64,000 nt of DNA, from positions 121,681 to 185,680 of the forward strand of contig QPGO01000095.1 of assembly GCA_008632985.1 (NCBI GenBank). The letters are read 5' to 3'. Positions 8,510-62,438 of this stretch are shown here, piece by piece; position 1 is the first letter of the stretch, and each line of letters begins with the position of its first letter. Origin of the DNA: Psammoneis japonica (lineage: Eukaryota). Position numbers and translations under genes: made by a program. A model generated the notes under the pieces. It worked only from the letters and a program-made list of their open reading frames with translations. It ran no database searches and was not told the origin of the DNA.

Positions 8510-11450
8510 TCCAATGGTTTTCCCTCTCCACTCGCTGCTTTTTCTGCTCACCACAGGGACAAGAAAACAGCTCACAATCTGGATGATGGGGTGATCCAGC
8601 ATCAGCACTCAGCATCACTTTTTGCTCCATCACTCAGCACCACCACCCTCCTCCATCTTCTCTCTTGTTGATGTTGCAAGCTTTCCAGCCATTCTCTTGG
8701 CTCTCACCAAACCCGCACATCTTTTTTGGGGGTGCTGACACTCCAAGGCCTCTCAAGACTCAAGAGTTCTCACTGGCCAGCCAATGTGACATGCGAGATT
8801 GCCCCAGGGTGCAAAGGTTGGACAAAGTGGATTTCTTTGGCGCAAGGTTTTTTCTCACAGCACCAGCATGTGCCCAATTTGCTGGCTTTTCTTGTGATCT
8901 TGGCGATGCTTGGCAAGTGCCATGGCCAGCTCCTCTAAAGGTGGCAGCGGTGCCTCATCATTTTTGCACTGGCCCCAGCCTCTGTGCAAGACTGTCTGCT
9001 GCAGTGCCACCAGCAAGCAAGTCTTCTTGTTGTGAGCATCGCCGAACTTGGGTTTTTGGCCAATGTGACTCAGATTGGGCTGTGTGTTGGCTGCTGCCCC
9101 TTTCCCTGTTGAAAGTGTGCCCTGCACCCATTCTCCTGGCACTCTCTTTGAGCTCCGCATCATGATGGAATGGGTGTCTCTGGAAAGCTGCTGTCCAAAG
9201 AATCATCTTTTGCACTGGCAGAATTTTTGCACTGAAACAGTTCATTGATCAGCGCAGCACAGACTTTTTGAAAAAACATCAAAAAAGCTTGGCTGTGCCA
9301 ATTTGGTGTGACAAAACAATGTTCTTTTTGGCAAGTGCCAACAACCCAACAAATGTCACCATGATGCACCAAATGCACTGCTGCTGTGAACAACATGCCC
9401 TGTTGCAATTCCACAACCATCATCATCTGCACTTGCACCATCCTTTGTTTGAGGAAATCAGGGCTGCATTCAAAAAGAAAAATGTGAACTTGCGTTCAAT
9501 TTGTTGGCTTGAAAACAGTGGTGTGCAAATGAGTTGGCTGTCACCATCATTGACAAGCACTGGTTGCCTTGCTTGTCATTTGCACACCAAAGATTAAAGC
9601 TGTTCTTTGCTTGCACAGAAAGTCCACACAAGTGCCCAAAATGCCATTCCAAAAACAGTGAAAAGCAAGCATGCATCAGTTGTCCACTGACGGAAGCAAA
9701 GAGGTCAAGTGATGAAAACAAGAAAGTGGCAAGAGCTGCTTTTAAGAAGTGCAGGGCACTCAGTCTGTGTTTCATTGGACAAGCAAGACCAGCTGGCATC
9801 ATTCCCTTTCACCAGGTGACACAGCTGATTTGTCCATGTCCTCTGCATTTCCAGCAAAGATTTGGCCAGCCAAACGCAAGAAAAGAAGAGGGCGGCACAC
9901 AGATCTCAACAAACCTCTTGGTCTGGGTCAGCTTCTTGCCACTCCAAGGCCCCATCCCGCACCAGGTGTGTCAGGCAATTGTGCATTGTTGGCATGACCA
10001 AAAAATCAAATCAAAATTCCCAAACGCTGTTGCTCCATTGCCAGCTGGGCCAGCACCAGCTCACCAACACTCCCAGTGCATCATGCACTGCTTCAGCATG
10101 GCAGGAGCTTGCATGGGATCAGCCAGAGCAGGTGCTGCCAGAAGGTGACACTCTGCCAAAGTGATTGAAAAGGAACAACATGAACTTGCACAAGCAGTTC
10201 ATTGCACTCTTGTTGGTGACAGACAAACAAGGCACGTTGCAACTGCAAAAGACAACTGCACTCAGTCAGATGGGTTTTTAAAAGAGCTCACAAAACACTT
10301 TGGAACCAACTGCCAAAGCCGGCACCACAAACTGGCTCTGGCACTTCAAGGCCACTCACTCACACACCAAAAGAGCTGCAACAGCAAGAAGAAGCTTGCC
10401 ACTCAAAGCAGTGAGAGCTGGGATGGCTGGCAAACAGAAGAAAGATTGCACAGGACTTGGATGCATTGAAAAAGGAGCCTTGAAAAGGCAAGACAAACAG
10501 GCCGTTGGAGAATGTGTGTTCATTGCGTGCAGCAACAACGCCAGATCTTGTGCACAAAAGCCAATGGATGCATCAAAAGGATGACAGTCAAATGGAGCAG
10601 AAGGACAACTCATGTTGAGGCAAGCAAGTCCTTGCTGTGAGTGCGCAACAATTTGCGCCAGCTGGCACCTCCACTTTGTTTGGGGCACACCACACAGCAA
10701 AAAGGGCTTCATTGTCCCGCTGAAGATGAGTGGTTTTCTCAGAGAGTTTTGTGAAAGGTGTGCACACCTTCAGCATTTTCTCACAGGATTTGTTCACAGC
10801 TTGGTCACTGACTGTGCCAACCCATGACTTGCAAGCACTGCAGTGTGTGTGCTCGCGCACACATGTTGTGCCAGTCACACCCAGGTTGTTTCAGAGATCG
10901 CAATGATCTGTTGGCATTTGGGTTCTCCCTGTCTTTCAAGACAAAAAGTCAGCAATGAATGTGTTGCACTGACCATGCCAAAGCTTGCAAAATCTGTTGG
11001 GCTGCAGGCAGCACTCTGCGACAGAGCGCGTGCCCTTTCAGCGCAAGTTGTGTGGCCCGCTCTGCTCCAGAGAGACGGCTCTGCAGAGTGCTCACATGAA
11101 CTGCTCTGCATCTGCATCTGGCACAAACATTCATGGACAATTTGTCAAGGTGGCCAGTTGCTGCTTTTTTTGCTCAAATGCGGCCGAACAGCTCGTGTTT
11201 TGCAGGACTTGTTCATGAATTTCCCCGTGCTCCACCTTGGTGAAAACAGCAAGCTGCAAAAGTCTGTGACGGAAGCAGTCTCCAGCATCATCCAACTCTC
11301 ATTCATTTCATGTTCCTCATGCATCAAAGCTCTTGCATGCAAGAAAAGTTTGAAGAAGGCAAGCTGCGTTTTTGAGAAATGTCAACGATTCTCGTCATCG
11401 TCGTGCTTCGATCGTCGCGGTTTTCGTGCGCGATCGGCGATCGGGCGGGG
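8510..11450. other. TpA-depleted, TG/CA-rich hypermutated domain 1 (decayed repeat or gene relic)
   Basis: Only a few TA in about 2.9 kb (e.g. ctctaaag, gattaaag, tttaag). ORF translations are Tyr-free and Cys/His-rich. Abrupt return to TA-rich DNA at about 11454. Confidence 0.85.
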
Positions 11451-11800
11451 CGGGTAGGAACCCCACAACAACAAGGTACTGTAGGACAAACCACTGTAAT
11501 TTAGGATGAACGAGGGACCTTAAGCAGTGGGAAGAAAGTGTCATTGCATCGGTGTCTGGCCCAAACATTTATTGACATCACGTTAAGTGGGAAGAAAGTG
11601 TCATCAGTGCATTAATTAAAAGACAAAGTTAGTACAGTGTATAGTACAGTACAGAAAGTATGTACCGGTACGGTACATATAGGCATACAATAAGATTCGG
11701 AGTTTATCTTGCTGGTTCTCCCCCTGCGGCCTCAAACGTAAACGATATCTAAAAAAGAGGGATATGTTTCCAGTATTTCGGTTAGGAAAAGAACGATAAC

Positions 11801-13287
11801 ATGTGCCAGAAAAGCCATCTATACATCTTTCTCGTCTTCCTCTTCAGTTTGATTTGGACGGCAGAATGTGCTGAAATGAACGAGGAAACACGAAAGAAAA
11901 ACGTACTCTTTCTCATGTCGGACGAACACTCTGGGCGATTGCTTGGTGCAGCCGGCCATCCTATTATCCAAACCCCAAACATGGATGCTCTAGCTAGAAA
12001 GGGGGTTCTATTTCAAAATGCTTATTGTCAGAATCCGGTGTGCGTACAGTCGCGTTTTTCATAATTGTTACATTTGTTTTTGTTGATGGCGTTTTGCTAA
12101 TGTTGTTCATGCTCTAACATCTCTCACAGTTGCGTACCATCTCGTGCCTCGTTGGCGACGGGGAAGATGCCATCCAAACTTGGTGTGTTTTACAACTCTG
12201 CCCACGAGGAAAACGTGTTGAAGGATGCACCATTAACGCTTCCCCGCGTGTTTGCGGAAGCTGGATATCTGACCGTGTGGTTCGGGAAAGAACACTGGGG
12301 CACTGATAACGAGGGCCTTGGTTTTGATGGAGCCAACAACACGGCTATCAGAAGGAAACATTACTCGCTTCTCCGTGATTACAAGGATTTCCGCAAATCA
12401 GTAGGGCGCCTTCCACAACGAGCCCAAACTATTCCAAGCAATATAACTCATCAAGAGGACGTGATTATGTCAGACGAAGCAATCGCTTGGCTTGACAAGT
12501 ACAATGGCACGAAGCCATTCTTTCTTGGTGTCTCTTTAAAAAATCCGCATTCCCATTCATTGTTGATGATGAGTACTACAATCTGTACAAGGATATTGTC
12601 GATCTTCCAAGAGTCTCCGAGGAAATGTTGCGAGACTTGCCAAGGATAAACTCCGAACATCGAAGACTGTACGGATTCGAAAGCATGGAAGATTGGCAAA
12701 TCAAGAAGGCAAGAGCAATGTACTATGGTCAGGTCACCTATACGGATCGCCAGTTAGGGCGGGTCGTGGAGAAGCTTGAAGAGAAAGGGCTGCGTAATGA
12801 TACCATAATCGTGTACACTTCAGATCACGGCGAGCAGGCAGGAGAGCATGGCCTTTGGTACAAGAACAGTTTTTATGAGGATTCAGTAAAGGTTCCACTG
12901 ATACTTTCACACCCCTCCTCCCTTCCTTCCGAAAAGAAAGTGTGGTGGCCGGTTCAACTGATTGACGTCGTTCCAACAATGTACCAGATGTGCGGCCTTC
13001 AGATTCCGGAAGGACTTGATGGGGCATCATTATTGCCACTTATTAAGGGAAACGAGAACGGGATGAATCGGCAGGCCCTTAGTGAAACATACGCAGGTGG
13101 CGGTGGACGAATGATCCGATGGCAATCCTGGAAATATTGCTGGCGCGATGATGGAAAAGTGCAGTTATTCAACATGTGGTATGATCAGGAAGAAGAATTC
13201 AACCTTGCCAACAGTACCAGACACGCAATGCTCATTGAAATGTTGCACCAGAGAGCAATGAAGGATTACGTACCAAGGCCCTGGTAG
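11801..13287 (+). pseudogene. Secreted family-S1 (choline-sulfatase-like) sulfatase, copy A, with a 1-nt frameshift at about 12550; intron 12040-12129
   Basis: NVLFLMSDEH, spliced CVPSRASLATG signature, YTSDHGE..GEHGLWYK. 'cat tc cca' here versus 'cac ttt cca' in copy B. The frameshift could be a sequencing error. Confidence 0.75.
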
Positions 13288-13489
13288 CTGTGCAAAGTCA
13301 TTGGAGTAAATTGCCTGTAGGACTTGTTACCTCTAGCCACACAGAGAGCTGTTGCCTTTGCATTTGCTGATGCAGTCGTCTGCACTTGATTTTGAATTTG
13401 GTTTACGTGGCAGGGATGAGCCAAAGCAGCAGCAGCAGCAGCAAAAGATGCATCAACTAGTTGTAATTCCCTTGTTCTAAAAAAAACAA

Positions 13490-16400
13490 TTGGTGAGATC
13501 AACAATCCGTTGATGTGATGCTTGATGAACTGTTGCAGTGATGTGGCTGACCCGTCTCACTTGTTGGTTGGTTGACCTCATGAGCAGCCAAGCCATGTGA
13601 CCCACCAGGCTGCAAACTTTGTTCAAATGAATTTGACCTCATGCTGTGTTCACTGGGGGGTGAGTGGACATTTGGGGGGAAGGAATGATGATGAAAATGA
13701 TGATGTGCATCCACATCAAAAAAGTGTGCATGTGGTGATTGTCATTGCCCAAGCATCAGCACTTGGCAGTGGGGGGCAGTTTCTGCTTGCTGGTGCCCAA
13801 AATGGGAGTTTGTTGCTTGAGTTGGGCTCTCTCCATTCACACCCATTGGCAGATGAGCGAACAAAAGAGCAAGCCAGTCAGTGCACTGGAGCACACTCAG
13901 TTTTGCTTTTCCTTTCTTGCTCCAGTCAACCATCATCCTGAAGCACTCACCAATGTTTCCCTGAGGGACAGTGAGCCCAAAGTGCTTCAAGCATTCTCTT
14001 GTTCATGACTCTCAGCAAATGCTGGTCACCACTTTTTAGTCCACACAAGACAGCCTTGGATTGCTCACACACCAACGCATGGTGCATTGTTTCCTGTCAA
14101 TGATCAGTTTCTCCAACAAGAGGAGACAATCGCGTCATTCTAGATCAACGCCAATGTTGGGATGTCTGAAATCAGCAAGCACCACTTTTTTCTGCTTGCA
14201 GACTTGTGCACTGGTGCCCTGACACAAAATCATTGCTTGTGCAGAATCGGACATGTGTTTGTGCTGGAAGGAAGAAATCTTGAAATTGAGTTCTCTCTCA
14301 GCAATCAACTGCTGGGTTTGTTTTGACTTTCCATTTTGTGTGCTGCTGACTGAGTCTTTCAATCACACACCTCATGTGCTGTGTGCACAAGCTCAGGCTG
14401 TGCATTTCTCCCCCACATGAGCACACAAATCATGTGAGTGTGAATTGACACCTTGCACTCTCATGTGTGATGACATCCAAGTCAGGTTGGAAGGAGCAAT
14501 CCAGCCCATCAGATGATGAGGGGCTTGTTGTGATGAGAAGGACTCCTGCTTGTTTGCCAATGACAGGTTGATGGACACAGCCAAGAAGCCCAATGGAGCC
14601 AAATGTCAAAGATCATCCAAAATGGAAAGAAGTGGGCAACAATGGTGAAAAATCAAAATTGCATTCACACCCAAGCTCTGCAAAAGGTGCGGAAGATGGC
14701 AAAAGCTGTGAGATTCAGTGGTGCTGTGGAAGGACAGGAGAGGATGCAACAGGAAAAAGAAAGTGCAAGTTGATTGTGCAGACAAGCAGAAGGACATCAT
14801 TGGTCACACAGCCATGGCCCCTGCAACTCTTTTGATGTGCAGTGTTAAAAAATGATGAGCTGGAGATGCAACTTGTGGTCATTGTGTGAATCTTGTTGAC
14901 ACAACACATGACACATTTGGACAAGGGCCAATGGCATTTTGCCCCAATTGTGGGTTTTGGATGAGATGAACAAGCTGCTCTCACCTGGTTGCTGCTTGAG
15001 CATTGTGGAGCTGACAACATTCACAGTGCAGCAAGGCATCAATGCTGATGTCACTTTGCTTGTGTGATTGGCAACCCCACCAAGGTTTTGACTGACATGG
15101 CAGGGCCAGCAACACTTTGCATGGCAGGGACTGCTGTGGTTGAGGAAAGGAAAGTGGAAAAAGGTGCTTCTCAAAATGGAAGTGGAAGACCAGATTTCTC
15201 CAGTCAAGGCATGACATTTGGGAAAAGCAAAGGAGGCAAAGAAGAAAGCAAAGCAAATTCTCTGTGAGGGCAGGGTTGACTCAACCAAACAAAACAATGC
15301 ACCGCATGCAAAATTATGTTGGAGAATTGAGAGCTGGTGAGCACATGGATCTTCTAAAGGAGATGGTCAAGTGAGCAGGTAAAAGGGTTGCAATGTGTGC
15401 ACAGAGCAAACCTGAGAATGCAGTTGCATGGCTCGAGAGTCTGCCCCTGCTTTTTGACCACACATTGTGCCAAACAAAGATCAACCAAAAGTGCATTTTT
15501 GCCACTCTGGTGCAATGCTGATCTCACCAGGTTGTGCCATGCTCTGATTCTTTGCTGACACAAAGACAAAACATTGAGAATGTGTCAACAGCATGGTGCT
15601 GTCCAGCATGAAACAAAAATTGATGTCTGCTTCACAGCTTTGCTGAGCAGCGAAGCTTTGCACTGGTTGCAAGAGATGGCAAGAATTGTCAACAAAAAAA
15701 TGCCACTGGAAGCTGTGGTGAAAGCCACTTTTCTTCTGAGCCACAGCACTCAAAGGTGAGGCTGCTGAGCTCCACAGATTGGGGCACAAGATGGAAGAAG
15801 AAGAGCTGTGTGTGGAAAAGATTTTTTCTTGTTTTTGCAAGCAGCAAAGGTGCTCTGCTTAAAAATGGATCTGTTTGTTTTGCAAACAATCTCTTCCAAG
15901 CTAGTCAGCTGCAGTCAAAAGCAAAATCATCTGTGTCAAAATGACAGCCCTCAGACTTCTTGTGCACTGGCACACAGTGGCACATGGCAAGCATGGCAGT
16001 GCCGCTGTTGTGGAGATGAAAGGAAGATCATGTATTGCAAATTGACTGCAGCCAGCACCAAAGACATGCCCAGCATGTGGTCCATGAGAGTGGGAAGAGG
16101 GGGCTGCATGCAAAGCTCATTCTCAAAGGCACCATGTGGCACTGAAACAAGTGTTGCTGGCATGGAAAAAGCTGGCAAAGATCTTCAAGAACTGGAGACT
16201 CATGGCAAACCCATGTGACAACTGTGCAGTGCATAAAATCATTGACAGCAAGCAGTGCACCATGTTTCAGCCTTTGAATGACCCAAAACTGTTTTGTGTT
16301 AATTTAAAAGTGGTCGCCAGCATTGTGGAGAGTCTCAAACAAGAGTGCACAAAGCACTGGGGGCTCACTGTCACTCAGAGAGGCATTCATGAGTGCCTCA

Positions 16401-16950
16401 GGAGCATGAAGATCAACTGCAGCAACAAAGGAAAAGAGAAACTGAGAGTGTTCCAGTGCATTGATGAGCTTGTTTTTTCGTGGCCAACGGATGTGAGAGA
16501 ATGGAGAGAGCCCAACTCCAGCAACAAACTGCCCATTTGACACCAGGGAAGAGCCCCCCACTGTTGCTGGCAAGCACTGATGCTTGTGCATTGACAACCA
16601 CCATGCACACTTTGGGGTGGATAAAAAAAATCATCATCATCATCATTCCTTTCTCCCTCAATTGTCCATTCACACTCCAGTGAATGCAGCATTGGGTCAA
16701 ATTCACTTGAACAAAGTGTGCAAAGTGTGGTGGGTCACATGACTTGGCTGCTCATGAGGTCAACAAACCAACAAGTGAGATGAGCATCACTCTAACAATT
16801 CATTAAACATCACATCAACCGATTGTTGATTTGCTCCAGCTGTTTTTCATTTTTTTCTAGAAAACAAGGGAAGGAGGGGAGAAAAGATGAAAGGCACTGC
16901 TGCAGGGACAGCATCTATTTAGACAACCAGTTGATGCATCTTCGCTGCTG
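13490..16950. other. TpA/CpG-depleted hypermutated domain 2, between the converging sulfatase genes
   Basis: TA rare and mostly in YTAR or TAAA contexts; strongly TG/CA-rich. Confidence 0.8.
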
Positions 16951-17099
16951 CTTTAGCTCATCCCCTTGATGTGCCCAAACGGCATGCTACGCAAACCAAA
17001 TAAAATACAGACGACATCAGCAAATGCAAAGGCGGCAGCTCTCTATATAGCGTGAGATAACAAGTCCTACAGGCGATCGACTCCAATGACTTTGCGCAG

Positions 17100-18593
17100 T
17101 TAGGTGGGCCTTGGCCTTGGTATGTAATCCATCGTTGCTCTCCGGTGTAAAAAATCAACGAGCATGGTATATCTGGCATCGTTGGCAAGGTTGAACTCTT
17201 CTGCCTGATCATGCACCATGTTGAATAACTGCACTTTTCCATCATCGCGCCAGCAATACTTCCAGGATCGCCATCGGATCATTCGTCCACCTCCACCTGT
17301 GTATGTTTCGCAAAGGGCCTGCCGTTTCGTCCCATTCTCGTTTCCATTAATAAGTGGCAATAATGATGCTCCATCAAGTCCTTCCGGAATCTGAAGGCCG
17401 CACATCTGGTACATTGTTGGAACGACGTCAATTAGTTGAACCGGCCACCACACCTTCTTTTCGGAAGGAAGGGAGGAGGGATGTGAAAGTATCAGTGGAA
17501 CCTTTACTGAATCCTCATAAAAACTGTTCTTGTACCAAAGGCCATGCTCTCCTGCCTGCTCGCCGTGATCTGAAGTGTACACGATTATGGTGTCATCACG
17601 CAGCCCTTTCTCTTCGAGTTTCTCCACGACCCGCCCTAACTGGCGATCCGTAAAGGTGACCTGACCATAGTATATTGCTCTTGCCTTTTTGATTTGCCAA
17701 TCTTCCATGCTTTCAAATCCGTACTGTGTTCGATGTCTGCTGTTTATCCTTGGCAAGTCTCGCAACATTTCCTCGGAGACTCTTGGAAGATCAATAATGT
17801 CCTTGTACATTTCGTAGTACTCATCATCAACAATGAATGGAAAGTGCGGATTTTTCAAAGAGACACCAAGAAAGAATGGCTTCGTGCCATTGTACTTGTC
17901 AAGCCAAGCGATAGCTTCGTCTGTCAAAATCACGTCCTCTTGATGAGTTATATTGCTTGGAATAGTTTGGGCTCGTTGTGGAAGGCGCCCTACTGCTTTG
18001 AAAAAATCCTTGTAATCACGGAGAAGCGAATAATATTTCCTTCTGATAGCCGTGTTGTTGGCTCCATGAAAACCCAGGCCCTCGTTATCAGTACCCCAGT
18101 GTTCTTTCCCGAACCACATGGTCAGATATCCAGCTTCCGCAAACACGCGGGGAAGCGTCAATGGTGCATCCCTCAACACGTCGTCCTCGTGGGCAGAGTT
18201 GAAAAACACGCCAAGTTTGGATGGCATCTTCCCCGTCGCCAACGAGGCACGAGACGGTACGCAACTGTGAGGGATGTTAGAGCGTGAACAACATTAGCAA
18301 AACGCCATCAACAAAAACGTATGTAACATCTATGACAAACGCTACGGTACGCACACTGGATTCTGACAATAAGCATTTTGAAATAGAACCCCCTTTCTAG
18401 CTAGAGCATCCATGTTTGGGGTTTGGATAATAGGATGGCCGGCAGCACCAAGCAATCGCCCAGAGTGTTCGTCCGACATAAGAAAGAGTACGTTTTTCTT
18501 TCGTGTTTCCTCGTTCATTTCAGCACATTCTGCCGTCCAAATCAAACTGAAGAGGAAGACGGGAAGGATGTATATATGGCTTTTCTGGCACAT
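17100..18593 (-). CDS. Secreted family-S1 (choline-sulfatase-like) sulfatase, copy B, intact; exons 18593-18355 and 18264-17100
   Basis: Hydrophobic signal peptide. The formylglycine motif C-V-P-S-R appears after splicing the 90-nt gtgcgt...cacag intron. Conserved GKEH, PHFP and SDHGE motifs. Uninterrupted frame. Confidence 0.88.
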
Positions 18594-21500: not shown

Positions 21501-21639
21501 CTGCAAGCTCACAAGAGGGGGACAATTTCCCTGAACCTTTGTCATTTTGCATTGGTCAGATGGCCTGATTGTGCAAAATCTGGCACAATTTGGCTGCCCT
21601 TTTGCTGTGCAACTCCCTCCAACAGAAAACACACCTGGG

Positions 21640-33165: not shown

Positions 33166-33203
33166 ACATTCTGTCACTCAACGGCCCTGATCATGGGGGA
33201 GTG

Positions 33204-47900: not shown

Positions 47901-47970
47901 AATTCAAAATCGGCCATCACTGCACTCACCACGCGCTGGTCCAATTGCAATGCTCGTCAATCATCACAGT
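41950..47970. other. TpA/CpG-depleted hypermutated domain 5
   Basis: TA nearly absent (survivors include atctagag, ctaaatctaac, ctctaatc). Ends about 30 bp before the MITE at 48000. Confidence 0.85.
46400..47480 (-). mobile_element. Decayed Ty1/copia RT-RNase H fragment
   Basis: PFMHLGL.MEFNGV, HIDHILKSHGW, GELLHAHI and AMSSTEAEFHAA..AKQALHLHSVLEELG..QEGP..FHVDNEPTI are copia motifs with His at expected Tyr positions. Confidence 0.8.
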
Positions 47971-47999
47971 CCTTTAGAAAACACCAACTTCACGTTTAA

Positions 48000-48489
48000 C
48001 GTGGTACGGGTACAAAAGTGGGCCAGATTCTACGCACGTAGAGCTTAGTATGTTTTCTACACAAATCGCCAAAGTCGGCTCGCCAACTTGAACCCTCTCC
48101 AGGACGATGGAAACTTGGACATTTCACATAACAAAGTGTTTTGACTACTTAATTACACTCTCCTCGACTTGTTTATGACGAGAAGTTACAAGTTTTCATA
48201 GGTTTCTGATGATATATAACGAATCTAATCAGAAAGGTGCCGAAATCGCGACGTTCGAGTTTTAAAGAGCTATACAAAACGAGAAACCCATGGAAACTTG
48301 TAACTTCTCGTCATAAACAAGTCGAGGAGAGTGTAATTATGTAGTCAAAACACTTTGTTATGTGAAATGTCCAAGTTTCCATCGTCCTGGAGAGGGTTCA
48401 AGTTGGCGAGCCGACTTTAGCGATTTGTGTAGAAAACATACTAAGCTCTACGTGCGTAGAATCTGGCCCACTTTTGTACCCGTACCACC
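48000..48489. mobile_element. Young foldback MITE with 208-bp TIRs, 74-bp spacer and TTAA flanks (Kolobok- or piggyBac-type TSD)
   Basis: 48000-48207 matches the reverse complement of 48282-48489 with about 5 mismatches. TTAA at 47996-47999 and 48490-48493. Confidence 0.9.
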
Positions 48490-49054
48490 TTAACATTTGA
48501 CACTATCAACATACCGGTACATGTTTACACGGTATGCCAAATGTTCGGAGCTCAAATTAATGAACTACTGTACTTTCACACAAACTGTTGACCGGGTTAT
48601 GTAACACCAGATGATTGCAAAGTCATTGAGTTGAGCGAACGGATCGGCACTTACTGCCGGGGCAGAACACACTTATGTACACACCTTTTACGTCTGAAAT
48701 GACTTTGGATATCCAAAACAGGGGGAGAAACACAATTGTTTTTGCAAGGAATTGTGCCGAAAAAATGGAAGTTTGGTTACACCTCGCTCATTACACCCTC
48801 GGTCGTTTACTGTTCGTGACTTCCCCACCCAACGTGACGACACTTTCAACAACAGGATAAATGTTTCACTTAGAGACAAAAACAATTTGGTCGGCACTCC
48901 CTTCTTTCCTGCAGTATGAACACAACCAGTGAATTTGAAAGTCCCAGTCACATTTTTTTCCCTCACAGGAGAAAGAAAGTTATTTTCGACGCATCTAACG
49001 ATTCAGTTGCGAACAAGCGCGACTCTTTCATATTGACAAACGTATTCTTCAGAG

Positions 49055-52000: not shown

Positions 52001-52087
52001 GAGAAGAAATGCTGGAGGAAGGATGGGCATTTCGTTGGCGAAGGTTCCAAGTGCAGGCGTGGATACTGCCCAGTAAAGGTGCATTAG
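49055..52087 (+). CDS. Secreted protein, paralog 2: N-terminal Cys-containing globular domain, (PTPSPT)n stalk and 12 GACC repeats; probable in-frame 96-nt intron 49157-49252
   Basis: 1010-codon ORF with signal peptide. Phase-0 gtacgg...caaag intron. The C-terminal 1.7 kb is nearly identical to 40070-41780. Confidence 0.85.
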
Positions 52088-55000
52088 GGGTTGTCTTAAC
52101 CATCACAGTTGAGACTGGATCCAACATTGGCGCGCGATCTTCTTTCAAATTACCTTTTCTGATGTTACTATAAGTTGAATGTTCACTGACAAAATTACGA
52201 GTGCTGCTACTCTCTACTCTAGAGTGGGGGCCACTGCCAACTGCCAGAGGAGAGAGTTCTCGTTTCTTGCTTTGTCAACGTCAAGCACCATGGCATCTTT
52301 GATTTAAGGTTTTGCCCTGCAGTGCCAAAGACTTGCCCTCTGTTCTAAAGTTTGATTCAACGTCATCATGTGAAGCCCATCCCATCTGCCAACACAAATC
52401 TGTTCTTGTGAGGCCGAGTGTGAGCAATGCATTTCCAGTCCTCAGGTAGAGTTTGTCCAAATCACCCACATTCAAATGCAACAGCTGTGGCAAATTCAAA
52501 TGGAGTGGCTCACCATCATCTTTCTGGACCCACTGGGTCTGTGGGCAAGAATGAAACAAGAGGCATCTGCAGAGCTCAGAGTGGAGGGTCAAGAAGGGCT
52601 CCAAAACTGGACAAAAGTTTTGTGACTGCAAATCATGACCAAGGGGTTGTGATTTTATTTTATTTCAAGAAGCACTCTCTTTTGCACTCCTGGCAACTCC
52701 TCCCCAAAAGTGACTCACACCACCAGGCTTTGTAAGCCCCACTTGTTGGGTGAGAAAATGGCTCAATTGGTTGAAACCATGCCAAAGGGCAATCCAAAAA
52801 GAGCTGCAAGGCAGTGCACACACAATCTCATTTTGTGTGTGACAAGCTCCAAATTGTTGTGGTCTGACATGCAGGCAACTCATCTAGAAGGGAGCACTGC
52901 AACCAACTGAGTGACACACCACAGACCCAAACATTGTTGGCTCCATTTTTTCAGGGTCTCCACTGGAAGATTGTCAGGGCACGGTGCAAGCTCTGGGAAA
53001 AGATCATCAACTTGACTTGGAGATGGCTGTGGAGAAATCATTTTCTTGAGTGGCGCTGGTCCTTCCAGATTGCACTGCATTTTGTTTCAAAGCTTGGATC
53101 CTGCCATGGCCGCTGATGGAAAGTTTGGATGTGGTGTGCATTTTTCCGGGCACACTGCCAAGATGGATCAACACATTTGCTTAAACAGGCACTCTCAAAA
53201 GGAGAGAAAGCTTGCCTCACTGCATGACAAGATCAGTGCTGCTGATTGACACACCACCCATGTGCACCATTGTCATGTTTCTCACACTGAACAGGGTCAA
53301 AACTTTGTTGCTTCAGAAGATGGCAAGAGGTGCCTCATGGGCAGCAGGAGCTTTTTGCCAATAAAACCACCAGAAGTGCCTTGTCTTCCCCGGTGGACAG
53401 AGCTGGGCGATCTTGTTTTGTGGCAAAGCCAGGAGGCCACATGAACATCTTTCATTTGTTTGTGTGTGGTTTTGAGCCTGACCCAATCTTTGTTTTGAGC
53501 ACAAGGCAGCCCACTGGCAACAAGATTCATTCTTGTGTGACTGCAGCTTGCCACTGACCAAGTGTGCACCCAGGTTCCAAGGAGAGATCAACTGAGGTCA
53601 AAAGAGCTCAGCTCTGTGGTGAGTCAGCAGACACAGCAACAAGCCACAGCACAAGCATCCCTGACCAGATGTTGCTGCTGGCTGCACCTTCCACAAGAAG
53701 AAAATTGGGCATCACCACACACCTTGCTGCCACTTGTCTTTGGCAGAAGTTGCTGCCATCTCTTGTTTGGCCCTTTGAGAGGGCACCTTGCTGGTGTTGT
53801 CCTTTGGAACACAGCCTTTTGCAGCCAGCCTTCCTTCTTTGCCACATGCACTGCCCACAGTGTCTGACATGGAACCTGTTTGAAAAAGGCTTGCAAGTGC
53901 AGAAACATTCTGCAGCTGCCTGGTTTGATGTGTCAGGAATGAGGAAAGCATGAACTGCTAACTTCACAGTGCTGCCCAGCTGTGCACAGCCAGTTCTGCC
54001 AAAAAGTGTTTGCTGGTGCTGAAGTGTTCTAAAAAAAGAATCTCATGTTGGCATGGAATGCATGTTGTCCCTGCCACATGGCCATTTTGACAGATGAAAG
54101 CACAGCATTGCTGTTGCTGCCACCTGCTGCTTTTGGTGGTTGGTGGTTTGCACTTTTGATGGCCTGAAATTGATGCACAACTTTTGATTTGTGGCCCTGC
54201 TTTTGGCACATGCATGAGATGCACACCAATTTGTTGTTGTGGGTTTGTGGATTGGCGCAACCCCAGCTTGGCACTTGCTCAAAACCATGGCTTGAAGCCA
54301 GTGCCTTTCAGCTTGGTCTCAGCCTTGCAAGTCTTTGGACATGCTTGTTCTTCTTGGCAAAGCAGGAAGTGACACAGCACACCAGGCCCTGAGATTTGAC
54401 TGCTTGTTTGTTTGTGTAATTTGTGCATCTTTTCCTGCTGGTGCTTTGGTGCAATCTGTGGTGGACTTTGGGTGAAGCATGCTTTGTGGGAAATGGAGTG
54501 AACTGTTTTACACAAAAAAGGCACAGGAGATGGATGCTGCTGGGAGACAGATGCTGCTCATTGCTCTTCAGAAACACACATGGGTGATTGTGTGGCAGAA
54601 CTGCCTGCTGGAACAACTGACCTCTCTTGCAAGAGAAAGAAGCAAAGGGAAGACGCAGTTTTGAGACAATGGGAGAGCAGCATGTGGAGGGCTCTGCTGG
54701 TCTGATGCACCTGCCTGTTCTTTGATGATGTGCAAATGTGCTGCTGTTTGCAATGAAACCTGGTGTTGCCAGCAGCAGTTGTTTTGTTGTGAGTCACATG
54801 GAAAAACAGGATGGATTTGCAAGATGGTGGTGCAGCACACAGCAGATGAAGCTTGCTTGCCCAACAAAGTGAGCTCCACTCACTCGTCAACTGTGGCGTG
54901 TTGGTTGGTTTTGCAGTTTGCAACCACACAACCACCCAAACATGATTGATCATGGCACAGCATGCAAAAGAGGAGGATGAGGGAGAACTTGGTGAGAGGA

Positions 55001-55749
55001 TGAGGGAGAACTTCATGGTGAGAGGGGCAAAAAGTCACATCAGATTTGAGTTGACAGGCCAGGTGAAAGAGCGCATGTGGTCAACACCAGAGGCAAAGCA
55101 GCCTGCCATGATGGGAGAGAGAGAAGAGCAAAAATGACAACCTTTTCCAAGCCTGAGTGTGATCCAGTCACTGTGGTCAATGAACCTGTTCCAATCAACA
55201 AAGCTGGAGAAGTGAAAGAACAGAGAACCATTGCCTGGCCGGTCATGGCCAGCAAAAGACTGTGACAAGTCATCTTGGCTTGGGGCACCCTTCTCCAGTC
55301 AGATCAGCTGAAGGGTCACACTCATTGGGTGGGCTTGAGGAGCACCTGCTGCCTTGAAGTGCTTGCTGGCAGGGCTGTGGGTGTGACATCTGCAGGTGCC
55401 AGCAAAAAAAGCTAAAGAGTCATGCACAGAGCAGCAAGACAGCATGTCATTGTTGTGGTGAACCAAACCACAAGTCCCCAGACTGCAGGTGCAAGGATGA
55501 GATTCCACAGAAGGATTGGTTCAAGAATGCTGGGGCAAGAAACTGGATGCCAGGGGACACAGTCCCATGCACAAAGACAAAAACAACTCATCAGTGAGCA
55601 GCAACAATGCCAGCATCAAAACACCAGTGGATCAAGTCAATTGACAAGTTCCAGCAGAAGAAGCATTGCATGGCATGTGTTTCAAACAGATGAACAGGCC
55701 AAACAGAGGCCAGAGACAAGTTTGAGCCAAGCCAACATTGGCACTGAGT

Positions 55750-58540
55750 TGGACAAAATCATCCTTGACAATGGTTCTGCCTTTGGCATTGCAGCAAGCC
55801 GGAGCCTGGAGCACAATGTGAGGCTGGCAAGGGTCAACATTGACATGTCCACGAGTGCAGGAATGGACACTTTGGACAAAGACTGTGCTGTGCCAGGATG
55901 GGGTGATGTGAAGCTTGAGCTGCAGAACACAAGAACAGCACATTTCCCAAGTTTGAAGGATGTGAAGAGCAAGCACTGCATTGCATGCAACAACAGGGCA
56001 GTGAATGAGCTCTGTGTGCTGGCCAACAAGAAGTCAGGCAAACAAGTTGTGGTGTTCAAAGTCAACGACATTGGACCACACACATTTGCTCCAAGCCAGC
56101 AATTCCTTGACCACATGAAAGAAATCTAAGAAGATGAGTCACATGTGAGCATGCTGTCAAAGGGAAAGAAGGTTGCAAAGAAGACCAACAAGAAGTGCAG
56201 GAGTGCATCCATCAGGAACTGTTGTTCCAACTGTGAAACAGAGTGTGAAAGGCTGCACCAAACAGGAGGCAGTGAGCACTGAGAATGCACTCAGGCCATG
56301 CTGTGAGGCCAAAACACCCAGTGTGAGGGATTTCAAAAAATGTGGACAGAATGGTGGCCATGTGGGGACCACCGACAGGCACACTCAAAGGCAAGACCAA
56401 GTGTGCACACCACTCCTGCACAAGGAACAATGTCATTGCACCACCACCTGAAATCTGCAAGAAGCAGAGAGAAGGCATGACCCTTTGCATTGACATTGTG
56501 GAAGCATGTGGTGTCAAGACATTGCATGTGATTGATGAGATGATCCAGTGCAGATCAAGTGTGCAACTGTGGTCCAAGAAACATGAGGACATCTGCAAGG
56601 CCATGGACATGATTCTCAGACAGCGCAAAACACTGCATTGTTTAAGATTGACTTTGTTGAGTGTGATCCAGAGTTCAAGGACATGCTGGTGGAAGTTGTG
56701 GATGGTGTGAACCTGGAGCTGACATCTGCAAATGCTGAGGATCATGTTCCCAAAATTGAGCAAAGTGTCCAAACCATCAAGGAGCAAACCTGCACTGCTG
56801 TGCACAAGACAACACCCAAGCTCATGTGCAAGCAAGCCATGATCAAGAACACTGTCATGTTGAATGTGCACTCACAACTGGAAGGGATTTCTGACACCTG
56901 CAGTCCACACACCATTGTGCAACAATGAAAGAGCCTCAACTGCAACAAGCATTTTCAGCTTGAATTTGAGGAACTTGTTGTTTTCCACATTGAGAACAAC
57001 AAGACAAACACTGTGGAAGTGCAGGGTGTTGACAGCATCTGCCTGCAACCCAGGAAGTCACTGTGCTGTGAACCCACACATGGGAAAGACATTGAATCTC
57101 TGCAGGTGCACCTCTGCACCTTTGATGGACACACATGTTGCAGCTGTTGAGGACATGACCAAGAGACAAGGTCTCAAGAAATTCAAGTCTGCAAGAAAGT
57201 GCAGAGGCAATCTGCGCAGTGCTGGTTAGACTGCAGGAGTGGACAACAACCAAATCGGAAGCAACAGCAAGAACAGCAATGACAAGAGTGCACCAAGCAA
57301 AAATGATGATGCGTGCTGCACAACTGAGTCAGAGAACAAAGACTGTGAAGACAAGCCCAACTCAGATGACAAGTGCAAGGGGGGCAATGAGACACTGGCC
57401 AATGAAAGGTCCAGCCCCAATCAACAGCACAAAGCTCAAGAGGAGTGAGAGATCCACGATGACTTAGAAAACAATGACCACTGTGAGAGTGAAGAGTCCA
57501 AAAGATGGATGAAGAGCCCCAACCAGATTCAAGATGGGAAGGTGAATGAATGGAGGAAGAAGCAAATGCTCTAGAAGAAAGGGTTGCAAGAACCAGGAGA
57601 TCATTGTTGAGCTGCAAGAACCCAAAAGCAAACAACAAGTCCATGAGCTGGCTGAACAAGATGCATGGCAGCCACGGCAAAGTCGTTGCCATGCAAGGGA
57701 AGAGACATGACTGTCTTGGCATGACCCTGGACTTCAGTTAAAAAGGAAAAGTGAAAGTTGACATGGCGGGCTGCATTTGCAAGATGATTTGTCAGTTTCC
57801 GGAGAAGACAAAAAGCACAGATTCTGGGGTGACACCATCCGAGGAGAAGACATTTGACACCAGTGGAACAAGATCACCTGATGAGAAGGCCCAGACCTTC
57901 CACATGTGTGTGGCCAAGGAACTGTTCCTGTCCAAGAGAGGCCAAATGGACACACATCCCACCATCACCATGTTGTGCACATGAGCAAGAGCTCCCATCA
58001 ACAAGGATTGGTTGAAGCTGGTCCATTGTCTCAAGCACTTGAGCTGGACAAGAAACAAAGTTGCTCAAAAGGACCTCTGAATCATCAAGTGGCATGTGGA
58101 TGCATCATTCGCAGCACATCCCAAGTTCAAGAGCCATGCCGGAGGAGTCATGGCAATGGGTGATGGAGCAGTGCAGACCATCTTGAAATGCCAGAAGCTC
58201 AACACCTGAAGCAGCACAGAAGCTGAACTTGTTCTTGGAGTTGACAATGCCATGACCGTGATTTTGTGGATGAAGCTCTTCATGGAGCACCAAGGGCATC
58301 TGATCAACAAGAATGTCCTGCATCAGGATGACAAAAGCACCATCCTGCTGGAGACCAATGGGTGCAAGAGTGCTGGGAAGTGATGACGTGCACTCAACAT
58401 TTGGTGTTTCTTTGTTGTTGATCAGATCAATTGAGGCAACTTATGAGCACAACATTGTCCTGCCAATGACATGCTTGGAGACTTCATGACTGAGCCACTG
58501 CAAAGCAAGAAGTTCTGAAAGTTTAAACAAGCCATTGTGG
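55750..58540 (+). mobile_element. Decayed CoDi-like Ty1/copia pol (PR-IN-partial RT-RNase H) with internal deletion of the RT N-terminal part at about 57595
   Basis: IILDNGS (PR). DHVPKIEQSVQTIKEQ (IN). WLNKMHG...GKRHDCLGMTLDFS (RT). KWHVDASFAAHP..KSHAGG, QKLNT*SSTEAELV, QGHLI..NVLHQDDKSTILLE.NG and ALNIWCFF (RNase H). LTRs not identified. Confidence 0.85.
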
Positions 58541-59049
58541 GGCATCAATGTCAAGCACAACAGGCATGAGGCCTGTTCTTTGTGACATCAGATGAGAATT
58601 CTTGTGGGTGAATGACACCTGACAAGTTTGATGTTCAGCACAAATGTGAGAGGCAACAAGAGCCTTGAGACCTGAGCACATTGTTTTTGCCAAGAGAGCA
58701 ACAATCAACAAGAGGAGTTGATGACTGTGACATCAAATTGGTCAAACAAGGTGACCAACAACTGCAAAATTGTGCTGGGAGATGACAATGACTCCTGCAC
58801 ACAACAACAACCGTGGGACTGTTGGAGCAGGTTCCACATCCTCACAAGATTGAAGGAGCATGAAAGATTGACATGGTGTGAAGAGGAACATGCCCAGGGT
58901 TTGCGTGAGAGCAACACAGGGGAATGACATTCCACCCCAGCCCTTTCATCTGTTGCAATGCTGTTGATGCATGTGAAGTCAAAAGTCCATGCCAGAGAAT
59001 TGGGGTTGAGAATCCAAACCTGTGTGCCCAGTGCAAAGCATGGGGAGAC

Positions 59050-59650
59050 AAGGGCCCACAGAGAGCTCTGTGATTAAAAAGACACCACAAAATTAAGAAA
59101 TTGTAGAGGTGCTGATGGATCTGACATGAGTCCTGAAGCAATTGAACATCTTAATGCTGCCACACCAATGTTCTCCATTTTGTGAAATAAAGAGATTGCA
59201 TCTGTGACTGTGGAACATGCTGTCAGTGCACACAAGACCAAAGATTGTTGGCAAGCCCTGGAGGCCAATTCTGAGAGACAAAACAAGTGCACTTGCATCA
59301 AGGGTCAATCGCCAATCAATGTCAAGCATCTGGCACCTGATGGTGGGCAGGAGCAAGAGGAAAGGATTGCCTTTTTCTCAACAAGCATGACATCAACATG
59401 CCAAGCTGCAGGCTGCAAGTTGAACATCAGTTTTTCTGCCTTTGGCATGAGCAAGAGTGGGGTCTGTGGACCCTTCATGAAACTCCAGAACAGGACAAGT
59501 GCAACAAGTGGCACAGGAAACCATGGAGGAAATTCTCTTTTGGCAACATTGACTTGTTGGTTCAACACTGTCACTTTCTGCATGACAAGTGCCAGAAAAT
59601 TCAAATGTGTCTCTGAATTGTTGAATCTTGTTTTTGCACTCAAAAAGGCA
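59050..59650 (-). pseudogene. Possible decayed UPF1/DNA2-like SF1 helicase relic
   Basis: Fragments VDVMLVEK.A, ARCLTLIGD and ISLFHKMENIG...FRTH occur in the order of SF1B motifs (DEA, LIGD, SLFERL..QYRMH), but split across frames. Confidence 0.3.
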
Positions 59651-62438
59651 AACAACTGTGTTCAATGACAACAAGCAGCCCAAGTGCAGCAATGCACCCA
59701 AATCCAAACACACAGTCAGAAGTGGTTGCCATTGAAGATTGTCACTGCAACAGAAACAGTTTGATTTCTTGCTTTTTTTCCATCATCTCTTTAATTGATT
59801 CAACACATGGGTTGGACAAGAGTTCAATTTGGTCAACAAGGACTTGACCTGGTCGTTTTTTGCTGGTGGGGCACTCACACGCACTTCAATCATGCCACCT
59901 GCATTGGCTCACACAGTGAAACAAAACAACAGCAGCTTGAAGCTGCACTGCTGGGCCCTGCCTCCTCTGCATGATTGCATGTGCAGCATGCATGCAGACA
60001 AAAGTTATTTTTGTCATGACCTTTGTGACTTTTAAAGGCTGCAACACGTCGCCATGATGCGTTGACTCTTGCAAGTAGCTGGACATTGCACATGGCACAA
60101 ATTGCCCACCAGTTTTGTGTTTCCATGAAGAAGCTGGACCCAGTGACAATGCTTTTGGTGGCTGCTGCCTCCACTGCCACCAACAACTTCATCAACATTT
60201 CATCCAAGCTCAGCAACACAATGAAAAATGGGAGCTCAGTGGCAACTGACATTCAAAACACTCACCTGACAAGAACCTTGCCACACTTCCACAGAGAGTT
60301 GCTCAAGTGTTTGTGAGAAATGTCCCATGGTTTGTTCTCCACCAATCAATTTTTTTTTAAAAGCTGCAACAAGAAATCAGAAGGGTTCACACAGGTGTTG
60401 TTTGTGGCTCTGTTGATTGGAAAGATGACCGCATGTCTTGCTGTTGTAAAAACTAGCACCGTCAAGAGGGTGCCAGGCCTTGATGACAACTGGTGCCACA
60501 AAAGGGATTCTGCACCTCACAAACATGGCCAAGGTGCTGTCAATCAGCAACAAGAAGGACGCCTCAGTTGATCTTGCTGCAGGCACAAGAACTGTGCCCC
60601 CCAAGCTTGCATCCACCATCACTCTAGATGAGATGAGAGAGGTTGATTGGAGGAAAGCAAAATGAAGAATCATCAAAAAAGGTGACAAAGGACTTGCTGC
60701 AAACATGCTCACAGTGCTGGTGAACTTGCATTGATCAATTGTGTGCTTTGACATTGGCGTTCACTCACATTGGTGTGATTGGAGGCAGAGGCCCAGGTGG
60801 ATTCACGGGTGCAGCTTCAAAGATGCACTTGTGACTGGGTTCATGAAATGACAGCATTGCACTGGTTTGTGAGTGCATTTCAGGTTGGAACCAGCAAGGG
60901 GTGTAGACTGGGTTCCAGTGTTGGCACTGGACAAGCTCAGCAGGTGCACTGTGCTGCAGTACAAACTGAAGTTTGAAAACCACATTGGCTCCCAGAGAAG
61001 CCATTGCATTTGCTGTGTGGCCACCATGCAACTCATGTCTTGCCCCAATCTGTTTCTTGTCCAACAGTTGCATGCAAAAACAACAAACACATGATCTGGG
61101 TTGCACCTCACAAAAAAACTGCTGCATGCTCCAACCAATGCTCTTAAAACACCAAAACATTTGTGTTGCGTGCAGCAAGAGAAGGCTGCAATGAACAATC
61201 CAACAAAAACAGAGGTGCACAGCACATTTTCTGGAAGAATGGACATGGGCCTGTTGCACTCCCAAATGCATTCCCATTGTGCCAAACACAACCTTCATTT
61301 TGCCTTTGCCACTTGTTTCCTTGCTTTTGCCACTGCTTTCCCCCTTTTGCTGGCTGGCAGGGGGTGGAGAGGTTGGAGTGGGGGCTGGGCACATTGTCCA
61401 CTCTTTGGGCAACTCCCCCCCCCCCTGTGCTTGCAAGCTGGCCACATGGAACAACAATGTGCAAGATGCAAAGCAGAGAATGAGTGCAATGGCCATGAGT
61501 TCATTCTCTTGCAAACAATTTTGCTGTGACCCATGCCAAGGAAAGAGCCAGCGACGTGTCCACACGTGCTTTTGTGCCATGTTGCAGTTGATGGTGATGT
61601 CATCTGTGGGGTTCTTGGGGTGGCATGATGGTGGTTCCATGACAACCAATTTTTGCGTTGTTGGCCTCAAAGTTGTTGGTCACATTGCACAGGTTGCTGT
61701 TCCCTGGTTGCTCCTCACATGCACCCACTTGAGTTGCTCAACAGGGCAATCTCTGCTGCTGGGGCAGCTGACAGGTTTTGCAAGAGGATGAAGAGGGAGG
61801 TGTGCCAGCTGAGTGTTTGCAAGTCAGCATGCTGGAGGGCAGTTTGGTGTGGTTGAGGAGAGAACTCTCATGTTTGTTTTGCCCATTTGTGGTGGAAAAA
61901 GTGGGGCAAAGGTTCAGAAAGAAAAGGAGGGAAAGGGCCGTGAAATTTGCATGGTTTCCAGCAAAAACAGAGCAGCCTCAGCACCAGAAGCAAGCTGACC
62001 ATGGTTTTCCATGTTGGTCTGGTGCATTGCCTGTTCCTTGTTGAGATGATGTGTGGGCGGCTGTTGTTGTTGTTTGCAGGGAACCTTGGCAAAGCAGCAG
62101 CAGCCGTTGTTGCGAGAGTTGCAAGGAAGAGTGGGACATGGAATTGCAACATGGGGATGCAGTCTGCAGCAGCTGGAGTTCACTTGTACGATGAAGTGAA
62201 TTCCACTCATTCAATCATTCATCATCTACTGTGTCTCCATGTGTCATGCACCTGTCATTCAATCATTCATTCAAATCACATCTGTCTGTCCGTCCGCCAA
62301 TTGGTGTTGTTTGTAGGCGCACAGCCGCCTAAACGTGATTTTGATTGATCGTAGCGCGCGTGCAACAATTTCGCGCGCAAGTCATTGCATTGCACGAACG
62401 CACAACACACAACACTTCGTTCAACGCTTACTTCCACC

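Follow-up and report, generated by a model that had tools for sequence, protein, structure and literature searches.

Repeat-induced point mutation (RIP) of ascomycete fungi, a process triggered by duplication, changes C to T at CpA and creates TpA and stop codons, and the ADAR enzymes edit RNA from A to inosine, which is read as G, with U preferred before the target A. A closer precedent for the locus described here comes from mutation-accumulation lines of the chlorarachniophyte Bigelowiella natans, in which 231 of 302 nuclear mutations fell in one giant-virus and one virophage region and 230 of these 231 were A>G or T>C, all on TpA according to the authors (10.64898/2026.01.13.699255). The rate was about 6e-7 per site per generation, only some lines were affected, and the B. 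natans genome was reported to hold 124 clusters poor in TpA and rich in CpA and TpG, with reverse transcriptase and DDE domains enriched among the TpA-depleted coding sequences (10.64898/2026.01.13.699255). Mettrop et al. proposed adenine deamination by an ADAT2-like enzyme (10.64898/2026.01.13.699255), and ADAT2/TadA deaminases, such as amphioxus ADAT2 (PMC10354150), are reported to be able to act on DNA. Here we analyzed a 64-kb window, meaning the whole stretch of DNA under study (Psammoneis japonica contig QPGO01000095.1, positions 121,681–185,680 of the forward strand, GC content 0.48; coordinates below are those of the window), in which six tracts, two of them reaching into a Ty3/gypsy long terminal repeat (LTR) retrotransposon, have lost nearly all TpA. 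We consider it probable that this loss reflects a post-integration, DNA-level hypermutation of TpA to TpG or CpA in the silent, transposon-derived intergenic DNA of this diatom lineage.

To judge from the text of the preprint, the two cases share A>G and T>C transitions at TpA that yield TpG or CpA, confinement to foreign or selfish DNA with the genome otherwise normal (one tract segment here is provably transposon), a very large excess (about 1000-fold in B. natans and, as a rough figure, a few hundred-fold or more here), and a long-term footprint of TpA-poor clusters rich in CpA and TpG. They differ in the host, which is a diatom-like stramenopile here and a chlorarachniophyte there, and in the targets, which are viral in the B. 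natans regions, whereas here they consist of an LTR retrotransposon and otherwise of unidentifiable old repeat DNA, with no viral genes found by Pfam among 229 open reading frames (ORFs). Depletion is also deeper here, with an observed/expected dinucleotide ratio (o/e) of 0.02–0.06 in tracts over 62% of the 64 kb compared to a Rho of 0.45 in the B. natans viral region; the tracts here lose CpG as well, which the main text of the preprint does not mention; and de novo events were measured in B. natans but are inferred here. A preliminary description of this locus, made from the sequence by eye, had known of no described system of this kind, a statement that the preprint makes outdated. Our literature search found no report of TpA loss or TpA hypermutation in diatoms. 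The main text of the preprint does not contain the words diatom, stramenopile, CpG, context, trinucleotide, flanking or downstream, and the 5′-TAY-3′ rule (Y, pyrimidine) reported below is not stated in it; its supplements may hold a context rule.

Six sharply bounded TA-free tracts

Over the whole window the o/e was 0.27 for TA, 0.50 for CG, 1.59 for TG and 1.53 for CA. Tract edges, set from TA positions alone, delimited the following segments, to which no strand is assigned:

8500–11454: TA-free tract 1; its core, 8500–11018, has 4 TA in 2519 bp (o/e 0.02) and a CG o/e of 0.18
13479–16792: TA-free tract 2; TA o/e 0.06, CG o/e 0.08; lies between inverted sulfatase arms and takes in both of their inner ends
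19288–29338: TA-free tract 3; old depleted DNA, a CpG-keeping sub-tract, and the gypsy 5′ LTR with the start of gag
30984–38248: TA-free tract 4; within the gypsy element from 30984 to about 33275 (CpG kept), later the old cores 33722–35895 and 36278–38248
41936–47816: TA-free tract 5; TA o/e 0.04 and CG o/e 0.06 in 42043–47618; a rim at 47619–47974 retains CpG
52347–62313: TA-free tract 6, the largest; 38 TA in 9929 bp (o/e 0.06), CG o/e 0.10

The six tracts cover 39,433 bp (62% of the window) and contain 166 TA (4.2 per kb), compared to 984 TA (40 per kb) in the remaining 24,567 bp. Two-state segmentation on TA and CG identified eight core segments with a TA o/e of 0.02–0.06, a CG o/e of 0.06–0.26 and TG and CA o/e of 1.66–2.05, while gene regions showed a TA o/e of 0.48–0.61 and a CG o/e of 0.79–1.00. 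The cores of tract 3 (19405–25055 and 25764–27767, TA o/e 0.03–0.05) enclose a TA-free sub-tract, 25056–25763, that retains CpG, and the rim of tract 1 (11019–11454) is likewise TA-free with CpG retained, no TA being present between 10279 and 11455. GC content was equal in cores and gene regions (0.47–0.50), and the tracts retain AA and TT, with AT slightly reduced. An unchanged GC content and an effect limited to particular dinucleotides led us to reject GC-biased conversion as a cause. The edges are sharp to tens of bases; at the left end of tract 1, for example, TA occurs at 8472, 8490, 8493 and 8499 and next only at 8936. The preliminary description had drawn six sharply bounded TA-poor domains with normal TA in the genes between them; its edges lie within about 0.65 kb of ours, most within 0.15 kb, and the densities inside and outside the tracts bear out the second statement. 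It had not stressed that CpG loss in the old cores is as strong as TpA loss.

Two features lie at tract edges. Just inside the right edge of tract 1, beside the sulfatase upstream region, 17 CpG are packed into about 65 bp of TA-free DNA (11386–11451). At the outer edge of tract 5, a 498-bp palindrome with a perfect center (47996–48493, about 90% self-reverse-complementary) has normal TA.

A depletion so extreme raises the question of an assembly or base-calling artefact, or of a native TA-free composition held by selection. We used the public read run X1, which is possibly from the same sample as the assembly and whose library type is unrecorded. It contained 87% of the words sampled from 8001–18000, and its contigs at a word depth of about 58–67, corresponding to single copy, spanned the TA-free stretches 25490–27794, 33659–36172 and 41638–43673 with 9, 4 and 6 differing letters, respectively. 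A consensus artefact in the window is therefore unlikely; X1, possibly being the assembly's own sample, rules out consensus error and gives no independent biology. The refutation by raw reads that the preliminary description had allowed for thus fails, and metagenome contigs from other assemblies carry the same signature (see below). A native composition is countered by the replacement of conserved Tyr residues, including one in the reverse transcriptase (RT) active-site motif, and by a segment of the same gypsy element that is untouched, with a TA o/e of 1.05. Artefact or native composition, already disfavored, can scarcely be entertained as an explanation.

TpA was changed in place in an integrated gypsy element

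The recognizable transposon in the window comprises these features:

28347–33636, + strand: Ty3/gypsy LTR retrotransposon with RVT_1, RT_RNaseH, Integrase_H2C2 and rve domains, LTR ends, a polypurine tract and a target-site duplication
28347–28780: 5′ LTR (434 bp)
33204–33636: 3′ LTR (433 bp)
28343–28346 and 33637–33640: target-site duplication CTTT, 4 bp, intact
28632–29918, + strand: gag ORF
30380–31387, + strand: RT ORF
31444–32766, + strand: RNase H-integrase ORF
29339–30983, + strand: untouched element segment with 9–19 TA per 200 bp (o/e about 1.05) and TA-free tracts on both sides

The preliminary description had placed recognizable retrotransposon relics, in the plural, inside its domains; this one was confirmed, and the Pfam and tblastn searches described below gave no further recognizable element. 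One X1 contig joins 28346 directly to 33647 and represents the empty site.

Comparison of the two LTRs gave the direction of change. Their alignment of 434 positions shows 35 differences, every one a transition (0 transversions), and they are 98.7% identical in the purine/pyrimidine alphabet. At 18 of the differences TA in the 3′ LTR corresponds to TG (8) or CA (10) in the 5′ LTR, and one shows the reverse arrangement; the rest consist of 8 columns that form four CA-versus-TG double sites, 6 differences at CpG and 2 others. The 19 single TA sites and the 4 double sites together account for 27 of the 35 differing columns, and the TA count is 3 in the 5′ LTR and 20 in the 3′ LTR. In the 5′ LTR about 18–22 of 21–25 TA sites were changed, while the two lineages together show 2 other differences in 434 bp, from which we roughly estimate, on small counts, that TpA changes may exceed other changes by a few hundred-fold or more.

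The coding sequence showed the same polarity. The RNase H-integrase ORF product has His (5) or Cys (7) at all 12 of its 12 conserved Tyr columns, while conserved Gly (14/14), Pro (15/15), Ala (12/12), Trp (11/11) and His (7/7) are all kept. Its other replacements (Thr>Ala, Ile>Val/Met/Thr, Leu>Ser/Pro, Asn>Asp and Ser>Gly) also fit TA>TG/CA, and the YLDD motif of RT reads HLDD. Because LTRs are identical at integration and yet differ here, and because conserved Tyr residues were lost, TA was the ancestral state and the change occurred in integrated DNA. The polarity is TA to TG or CA, and the change took place in situ. LTR, Tyr and TA-density evidence thus agree with the preliminary description, which had given this polarity, had called the change specific to the dinucleotide and had confined it to silent DNA bearing transposons.

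Within the element CpG is kept throughout, and TA is lost in 28347–29338 and from 30984 to about 33275. The second of these segments takes in the C-terminal part of RT, then RNase H and integrase, and stops ~70 bp into the 3′ LTR, and the remainder of that LTR (about 33278–33636), although inside the span of tract 4, retains TA. The segment between them, at a TA o/e of 1.05, speaks against the possibility, raised in the preliminary description, that the intact family is itself TA-free. Reading frames continue through both internal edges (~29339 and ~30983), the right one lying between the Tyr codon at 30980, which is kept, and the codon at 30983, which is now Cys. Word depth of the gypsy sequence in X1 was 11,000–23,000, compared to about 60 for single-copy DNA, which corresponds to about 200–350 copies. 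At 30477 the window carries 2 bases that are absent from most gypsy copies in X1 (depth 2420/2538); this appears to be a 2-bp insertion private to the window's copy, and it would break the frame between the protease and RT ORFs.

The internal edges might have been made by ectopic gene conversion or recombination between mutated and intact copies, with hypermutation itself acting elsewhere or over whole copies. The roughly 200–350 copies in the read set, the uninterrupted frames across both edges, and a right tract that ends at no feature boundary but about 70 bp within the 3′ LTR all point that way. However, such exchange leaves the source of the TA-free copies unexplained, single-copy old tracts are equally sharp against genes, and similar edges occur at loci L050 and L020 of other organisms (see below). 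We regard this origin of the edges as unlikely, though deserving some weight.

Both strands are changed, with a preference for TAY

The outcomes of TA change in the LTRs were interleaved, 8 TG and 10 CA falling in 11 runs by hand count compared to about 9.9 expected by chance, and the Tyr codons gave 9 TG and 8 CA. A strand-coherent single pass was ruled out, as the number of TG/CA runs is that of chance. Like editing by the ADAR and ADAT enzymes, the process would convert A to inosine, read as G, with U or T preferred before the target A. Editing of retrotransposon RNA or cDNA by an ADAR/ADAT-like enzyme before integration would accommodate both the preference of ADARs for U before the edited A (discussed in 10.64898/2026.01.13.699255) and the retroelement nature of the recognizable target. 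Unlike RNA editing by ADAR, the change here lies in integrated DNA and on both strands, in interleaved fashion; 19 TA sites distinguish the two LTRs of one insertion, which start out identical; TA-free DNA reaches CpG-rich rims beside genes; and the choice between Cys and His varies among copies of one family. Pre-integration editing was already disfavored and is, on this evidence, very improbable.

The bases flanking TA governed its survival. Relative to gene regions, survival in the old tracts was 0 for ATAT, 0.008 for ATAC/GTAT, 0.015 for ATAG/CTAT and 0.02 for GTAC, and it was best for CTAG (0.78), TTAA (0.67) and CTAA/TTAG (0.41). The suggestion of the preliminary description that TA/TTAA target sites of transposons would be erased is therefore speculative, TTAA being one of the contexts that survive best. 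In the young tracts, compared to the untouched segment, TAC and TAT persisted at 4–7%, TAA at 27% and TAG at 15%, and TGC gained most. Where the two strands offered unequal contexts, the A before a pyrimidine was the one changed in 12 cases versus 4 (LTRs, 6 versus 2; Tyr codons, 6 versus 2). The preferred site is 5′-TAY-3′, and YTAR sites (R, purine) partly escape.

Several segments are free of TA and yet keep CpG: 11019–11454, 25056–25763, 35896–36277, 47619–47974 and both tracts inside the gypsy element. In these young tracts TA has gone but CpG is intact, so that TA is lost before CpG. Methylcytosine decay at CpG fits the CpG loss in the old cores (CG o/e 0.06–0.26) and 6 of the 35 LTR differences, but it is unable to remove TpA, whose loss is faster and separable, as seen at 31.0–33.2 kb, 11019–11454 and 25056–25763. 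In single-copy tracts the window and X1 differed at 17 positions, 2 of which were TA>CA at residual CTAG and 9 CpG/TpG or CpG/CpA; about 0.6% of tract positions are bases of residual TA. These differences suggest that the hypermutation may still be active today.

The same signature in environmental retrotransposons

Relatives of the RNase H-integrase protein carried similar replacements. Among its 120 best relatives, two metagenome proteins, P0217 and P0207, have Cys or His at 9 of 13 and 8 of 12 conserved Tyr columns, respectively. In the family of P0217, a second gypsy family, three members contain 3.0–3.2% Tyr and six contain 0–1.2%; the six Tyr-poor members showed 24–56 substitutions of the predicted kind versus 1–14 of the reverse kind, with Tyr>His/Cys throughout. 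The choice of Cys or His at a given column varies among the copies of this family, indicating that each copy was mutated separately. Public gene callers have entered hypermutated pol copies (P0217, P0254–P0256, P0279 and P0292) as 'hypothetical proteins'.

A scan of metagenome DNA with a single protein as query returned zero relatives, and a scan with an alignment as query returned 79 related loci. Four of these (L050, L042, L020 and L043) contain a 1-kb stretch with a TA o/e of at most 0.17, and all four are among the 14 loci that share one contig-name prefix, with 0 among the other 65. The metagenome loci match the window only in pol, at 63–69% identity, so none of them represents the same species. 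In L050 the TA count drops from 7–18 to 0–3 per 250 bp at about base 3000, with CpG kept; eight L050 ORFs were scanned with Pfam, and the five from the TA-free half gave no match.

We polarised the spectrum of L042 against the column majority of five less affected family copies (80–91% identity). L042 differs at 215 of 2357 compared sites, and 149 of the differences are A>G (87) or T>C (62). A>G occurred at 44 of 112 TpA sites, compared to 9 of 216 ApA, 7 of 154 CpA and 8 of 167 GpA, while T>C occurred at 32 of 110 T residues before A, compared to 3 of 108, 6 of 114 and 4 of 109 before the other bases; leave-one-out controls with the five other copies gave 2.4–13% at TpA. The TpA excess, which the preliminary description had expected a polarised spectrum to reveal, was about 8- to 10-fold in L042. 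By site class, 29% of YTAR, 91% of YTAY, 92% of RTAR and 94% of RTAY sites were mutated, and the A was changed in 41 of 58 opportunities at YTAY, 14 of 32 at RTAY, 10 of 58 at RTAR and 7 of 62 at YTAR. L042 thus follows the same TAY rule as the window.

The L042 spectrum bears on two other chemistries. Error-prone repair synthesis in silent chromatin by a Pol-eta-like polymerase was suggested by the preliminary description and would draw on the A>G bias of Pol eta at WA motifs (W, A or T). However, ApA was spared in L042 (9 of 216 versus 44 of 112 at TpA), AA o/e is unchanged in the tracts, and at most 2 of 35 LTR differences lie outside TA- or CG-derived sites, so that this alternative, already disfavored, is hardly credible. 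Thymine chemistry would start from the other base of the step: T in 5′-RTA-3′ would be modified, for example by TET/JBP oxidation to 5-hydroxymethyluracil or 5-formyluracil, would mispair with G and would appear as T>C. Indeed, 5-formyluracil mispairs with G, some protists carry thymine hypermodification, and TA being self-complementary, the L042 counts fit both A>G at TAY and T>C at RTA. Nothing in the present data points directly to a modified thymine of this kind or to an enzyme that makes it, and the only published proposal for a TpA signature, given in the B. natans preprint text, is adenine deamination; we consider thymine chemistry decidedly unlikely.

Duplicated genes between the tracts are not hypermutated

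The gaps between tracts encode a TerC-family protein, two sulfatases, an LMBR1-like protein and several ORFs without a Pfam family. The best 120 database relatives of the LMBR1-like ORF are 54–62% identical to it, and the named ones are mostly diatoms (Epithemia, Nitzschia, Entomoneis, Thalassiosira and Attheya), which marks the source as a diatom-like stramenopile with no proteins of its own in that database. Two of the genes are duplicated within the window:

11706–13478, + strand: sulfatase gene arm with normal TA; inverted copy at 16793–18679, 92.2% identical over 1650 bp
39676–41781, + strand: repeat-protein gene with normal TA; paralogue at 49956–52088, 94% identical over 2097 bp with 0 CA-versus-TG double sites

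In both the inverted sulfatase and the direct repeat-protein duplication the two copies have normal and equal TA counts, and the sulfatase arms likewise show 0 CA-versus-TG double sites. With its flanks, the inverted duplication extends over 11706–14104 and 16238–18679, at 92–99% identity over the gene and about 70–83% inside the TA-free tract; as identity falls where the arms enter the tract, tract DNA has diverged much faster than the sulfatase gene. The depleted inner arms (13481–14105 and 16237–16848) are 77.5% identical and contain 10 CA-versus-TG double sites. With two gene duplications of 1.65 and 2.1 kb left untouched at 92–94% identity, repetition alone is not the trigger, and the 'repeat-targeted' character assigned to the process in the preliminary description is not supported.

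The untouched duplications also separate the process from fungal RIP. Both produce dinucleotide-specific transitions in resident DNA on either strand, inactivate transposons and leave aberrant blocks between genes. The direction is opposite, however, as TA is lost here (Tyr TAY becoming Cys or His) and stops are removed rather than made, and the two duplicated gene pairs, which duplication-triggered RIP should have affected, are untouched. Fungal RIP was excluded on both grounds.

Some further features of these genes were recorded. The repeat-protein paralogous ORFs, 39558–41780 (740 aa) and 49037–52087 (1016 aa), contain 24-nt and 315-nt tandem repeats and have no Pfam family. A TA-free tract lies downstream of each paralogue, with weak collinear matches in the purine/pyrimidine alphabet (42070/53135 and 42621/54290), which suggest that the duplication took in the start of the downstream tract. 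At 40298, 40423, 40463 and 40596 within the repeat-protein gene the window and X1 differ by TA>CA or TA>TG; these four differences may represent cross-laid paralogous repeat units rather than alleles. Another ORF without a Pfam family (6883–8337, − strand, 484 aa) contains a 54-nt tandem repeat of about 4 copies at 7103–7327.

Content of the old tracts

In the remaining depleted DNA we scanned 229 ORFs (80 aa or longer) with Pfam, and not one matched a transposon or viral family; six gave a single unrelated match each, all below curated cut-offs. A tblastn search with 123 proteins (the three ORF products of the element and 120 gypsy relatives) found nothing beyond the gypsy element; the one of its 288 matches that fell outside the 27.9–33.7 kb filter was the 3′ LTR copy of the gag ORF start. 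Two features of the old tracts were nevertheless informative:

21639–23272, + strand: old dispersed repeat; second copy at 33851–35466, both TA- and CpG-free
55416–56126, + strand: P0245, a 237-aa ORF within old tract 6 and a candidate retroelement relic

The two copies of the old repeat are 79.5% identical over 1572 aligned bases (75.7% by BLAST) and 87.9% identical in the purine/pyrimidine alphabet, and their alignment holds 42 dinucleotide positions at which one copy reads CA and the other TG, compared to 0 such double sites in the normal paralogue pairs (1650 and 2097 aligned bases). CA-versus-TG double sites are expected where each copy resolved an ancestral TA (or CG) independently after separation. 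Five shorter repeat pairs across the tracts also outscored a shuffled control. P0245 has 8 weak relatives (E 2.5e-6 to 8e-4) with a common LDNGS/T motif and no Pfam family; a CX2CX4HX4C knuckle lies upstream in two of them, and Retrotrans_gag matches one below threshold (E 0.02). We take P0245 to be a gag-protease relic, presumably, a reading that Pfam leaves unconfirmed. A 304-aa ORF in TA-free DNA (60768–61679, − strand) is rich in Cys, His, Gln, Trp and Met. Without TA there can be no TAA or TAG stop, and long ORFs are therefore preserved or newly formed in such DNA.

Proposed mechanism

Taken together, the data are best read as the B. natans kind of TpA hypermutation operating in a diatom lineage as well as in one or more other organisms from the environment. 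In the mechanism that we propose, an A:T to G:C transition would occur at the A of either strand of a TA step and would go nearly to saturation inside tracts that measure about 1–10 kb and end sharply, the strands being changed in interleaved fashion. TpA conversion would be much faster than CpG decay, such that young tracts would keep CpG and old ones would lose both, with CpG loss an ordinary consequence of presumed cytosine methylation. Coding sequences would suffer missense changes only (Tyr to Cys or His, Ile to Val, Met or Thr, Thr to Ala), and because TAA and TAG stops are removed, dead copies would keep long open frames. The chemistry would most likely be the enzymatic conversion of adenine to inosine by a deaminase of the ADAT/TadA type, which is the proposal made for B. 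natans; an adenine deaminase, one of the two options of the preliminary description, thus stays plausible. Targeting would follow a silent-chromatin or small-RNA mark rather than sequence repetition, and the role may be genome defense.

A number of points weigh against this account. The clean LTR test comes from one element only, and the internal edges at ~29339 and ~30983 could stem from ectopic gene conversion and so not be the edges of the mutating activity. Within the window the TAY bias derives from small polarised counts (12 versus 4), backed by the survival ratios, and present-day activity rests on 2 of 17 window-versus-X1 differences. X1, with its library type unrecorded, may be the assembly's own sample. 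The transposon origin of the old tracts appears unsupported by the Pfam scan of 229 ORFs, and much old-tract DNA is single-copy in X1 at 90% likeness. We infer deamination from the pattern of change, and sequence alone cannot separate A>G at TAY from T>C on the opposite strand at RTA. Finally, a by-product of DNA modification is an alternative to a defense role.

Implications

The only prior case of TpA-specific hypermutation comes from one 2026 preprint, whose text describes one chlorarachniophyte with a mild footprint and integrated viruses as targets; new here are a different major algal group, an LTR retrotransposon as target, and a process carried near completion. Beyond what the preprint text contains, the present locus adds change in place demonstrated from the LTRs of one insertion, the TAY rule in both the window and environmental retrotransposons, sharp-edged kilobase tracts, TA loss long before CpG loss, and the finding that duplication alone is no trigger. 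TA-free dead copies also set an annotation trap, since they keep long frames rich in Cys, His, Gln and Trp that are called as proteins, which affects protein databases too. Other eukaryotes could be screened for the process simply, by computing TA and TG+CA o/e across the genome, and TAY provides a testable motif for an enzyme search. Tentatively, the pattern might reflect an enzyme that is guided by chromatin or RNA and edits adenine in double-stranded genomic DNA at 5′-TAY-3′, an old defense arm common to stramenopiles and rhizarians or else twice invented, and saturated here over more than half of the intergenic DNA. If this is true, nature would possess a DNA adenine base editor of defined motif, and fungal RIP would have its counterpart in the A:T>G:C direction.

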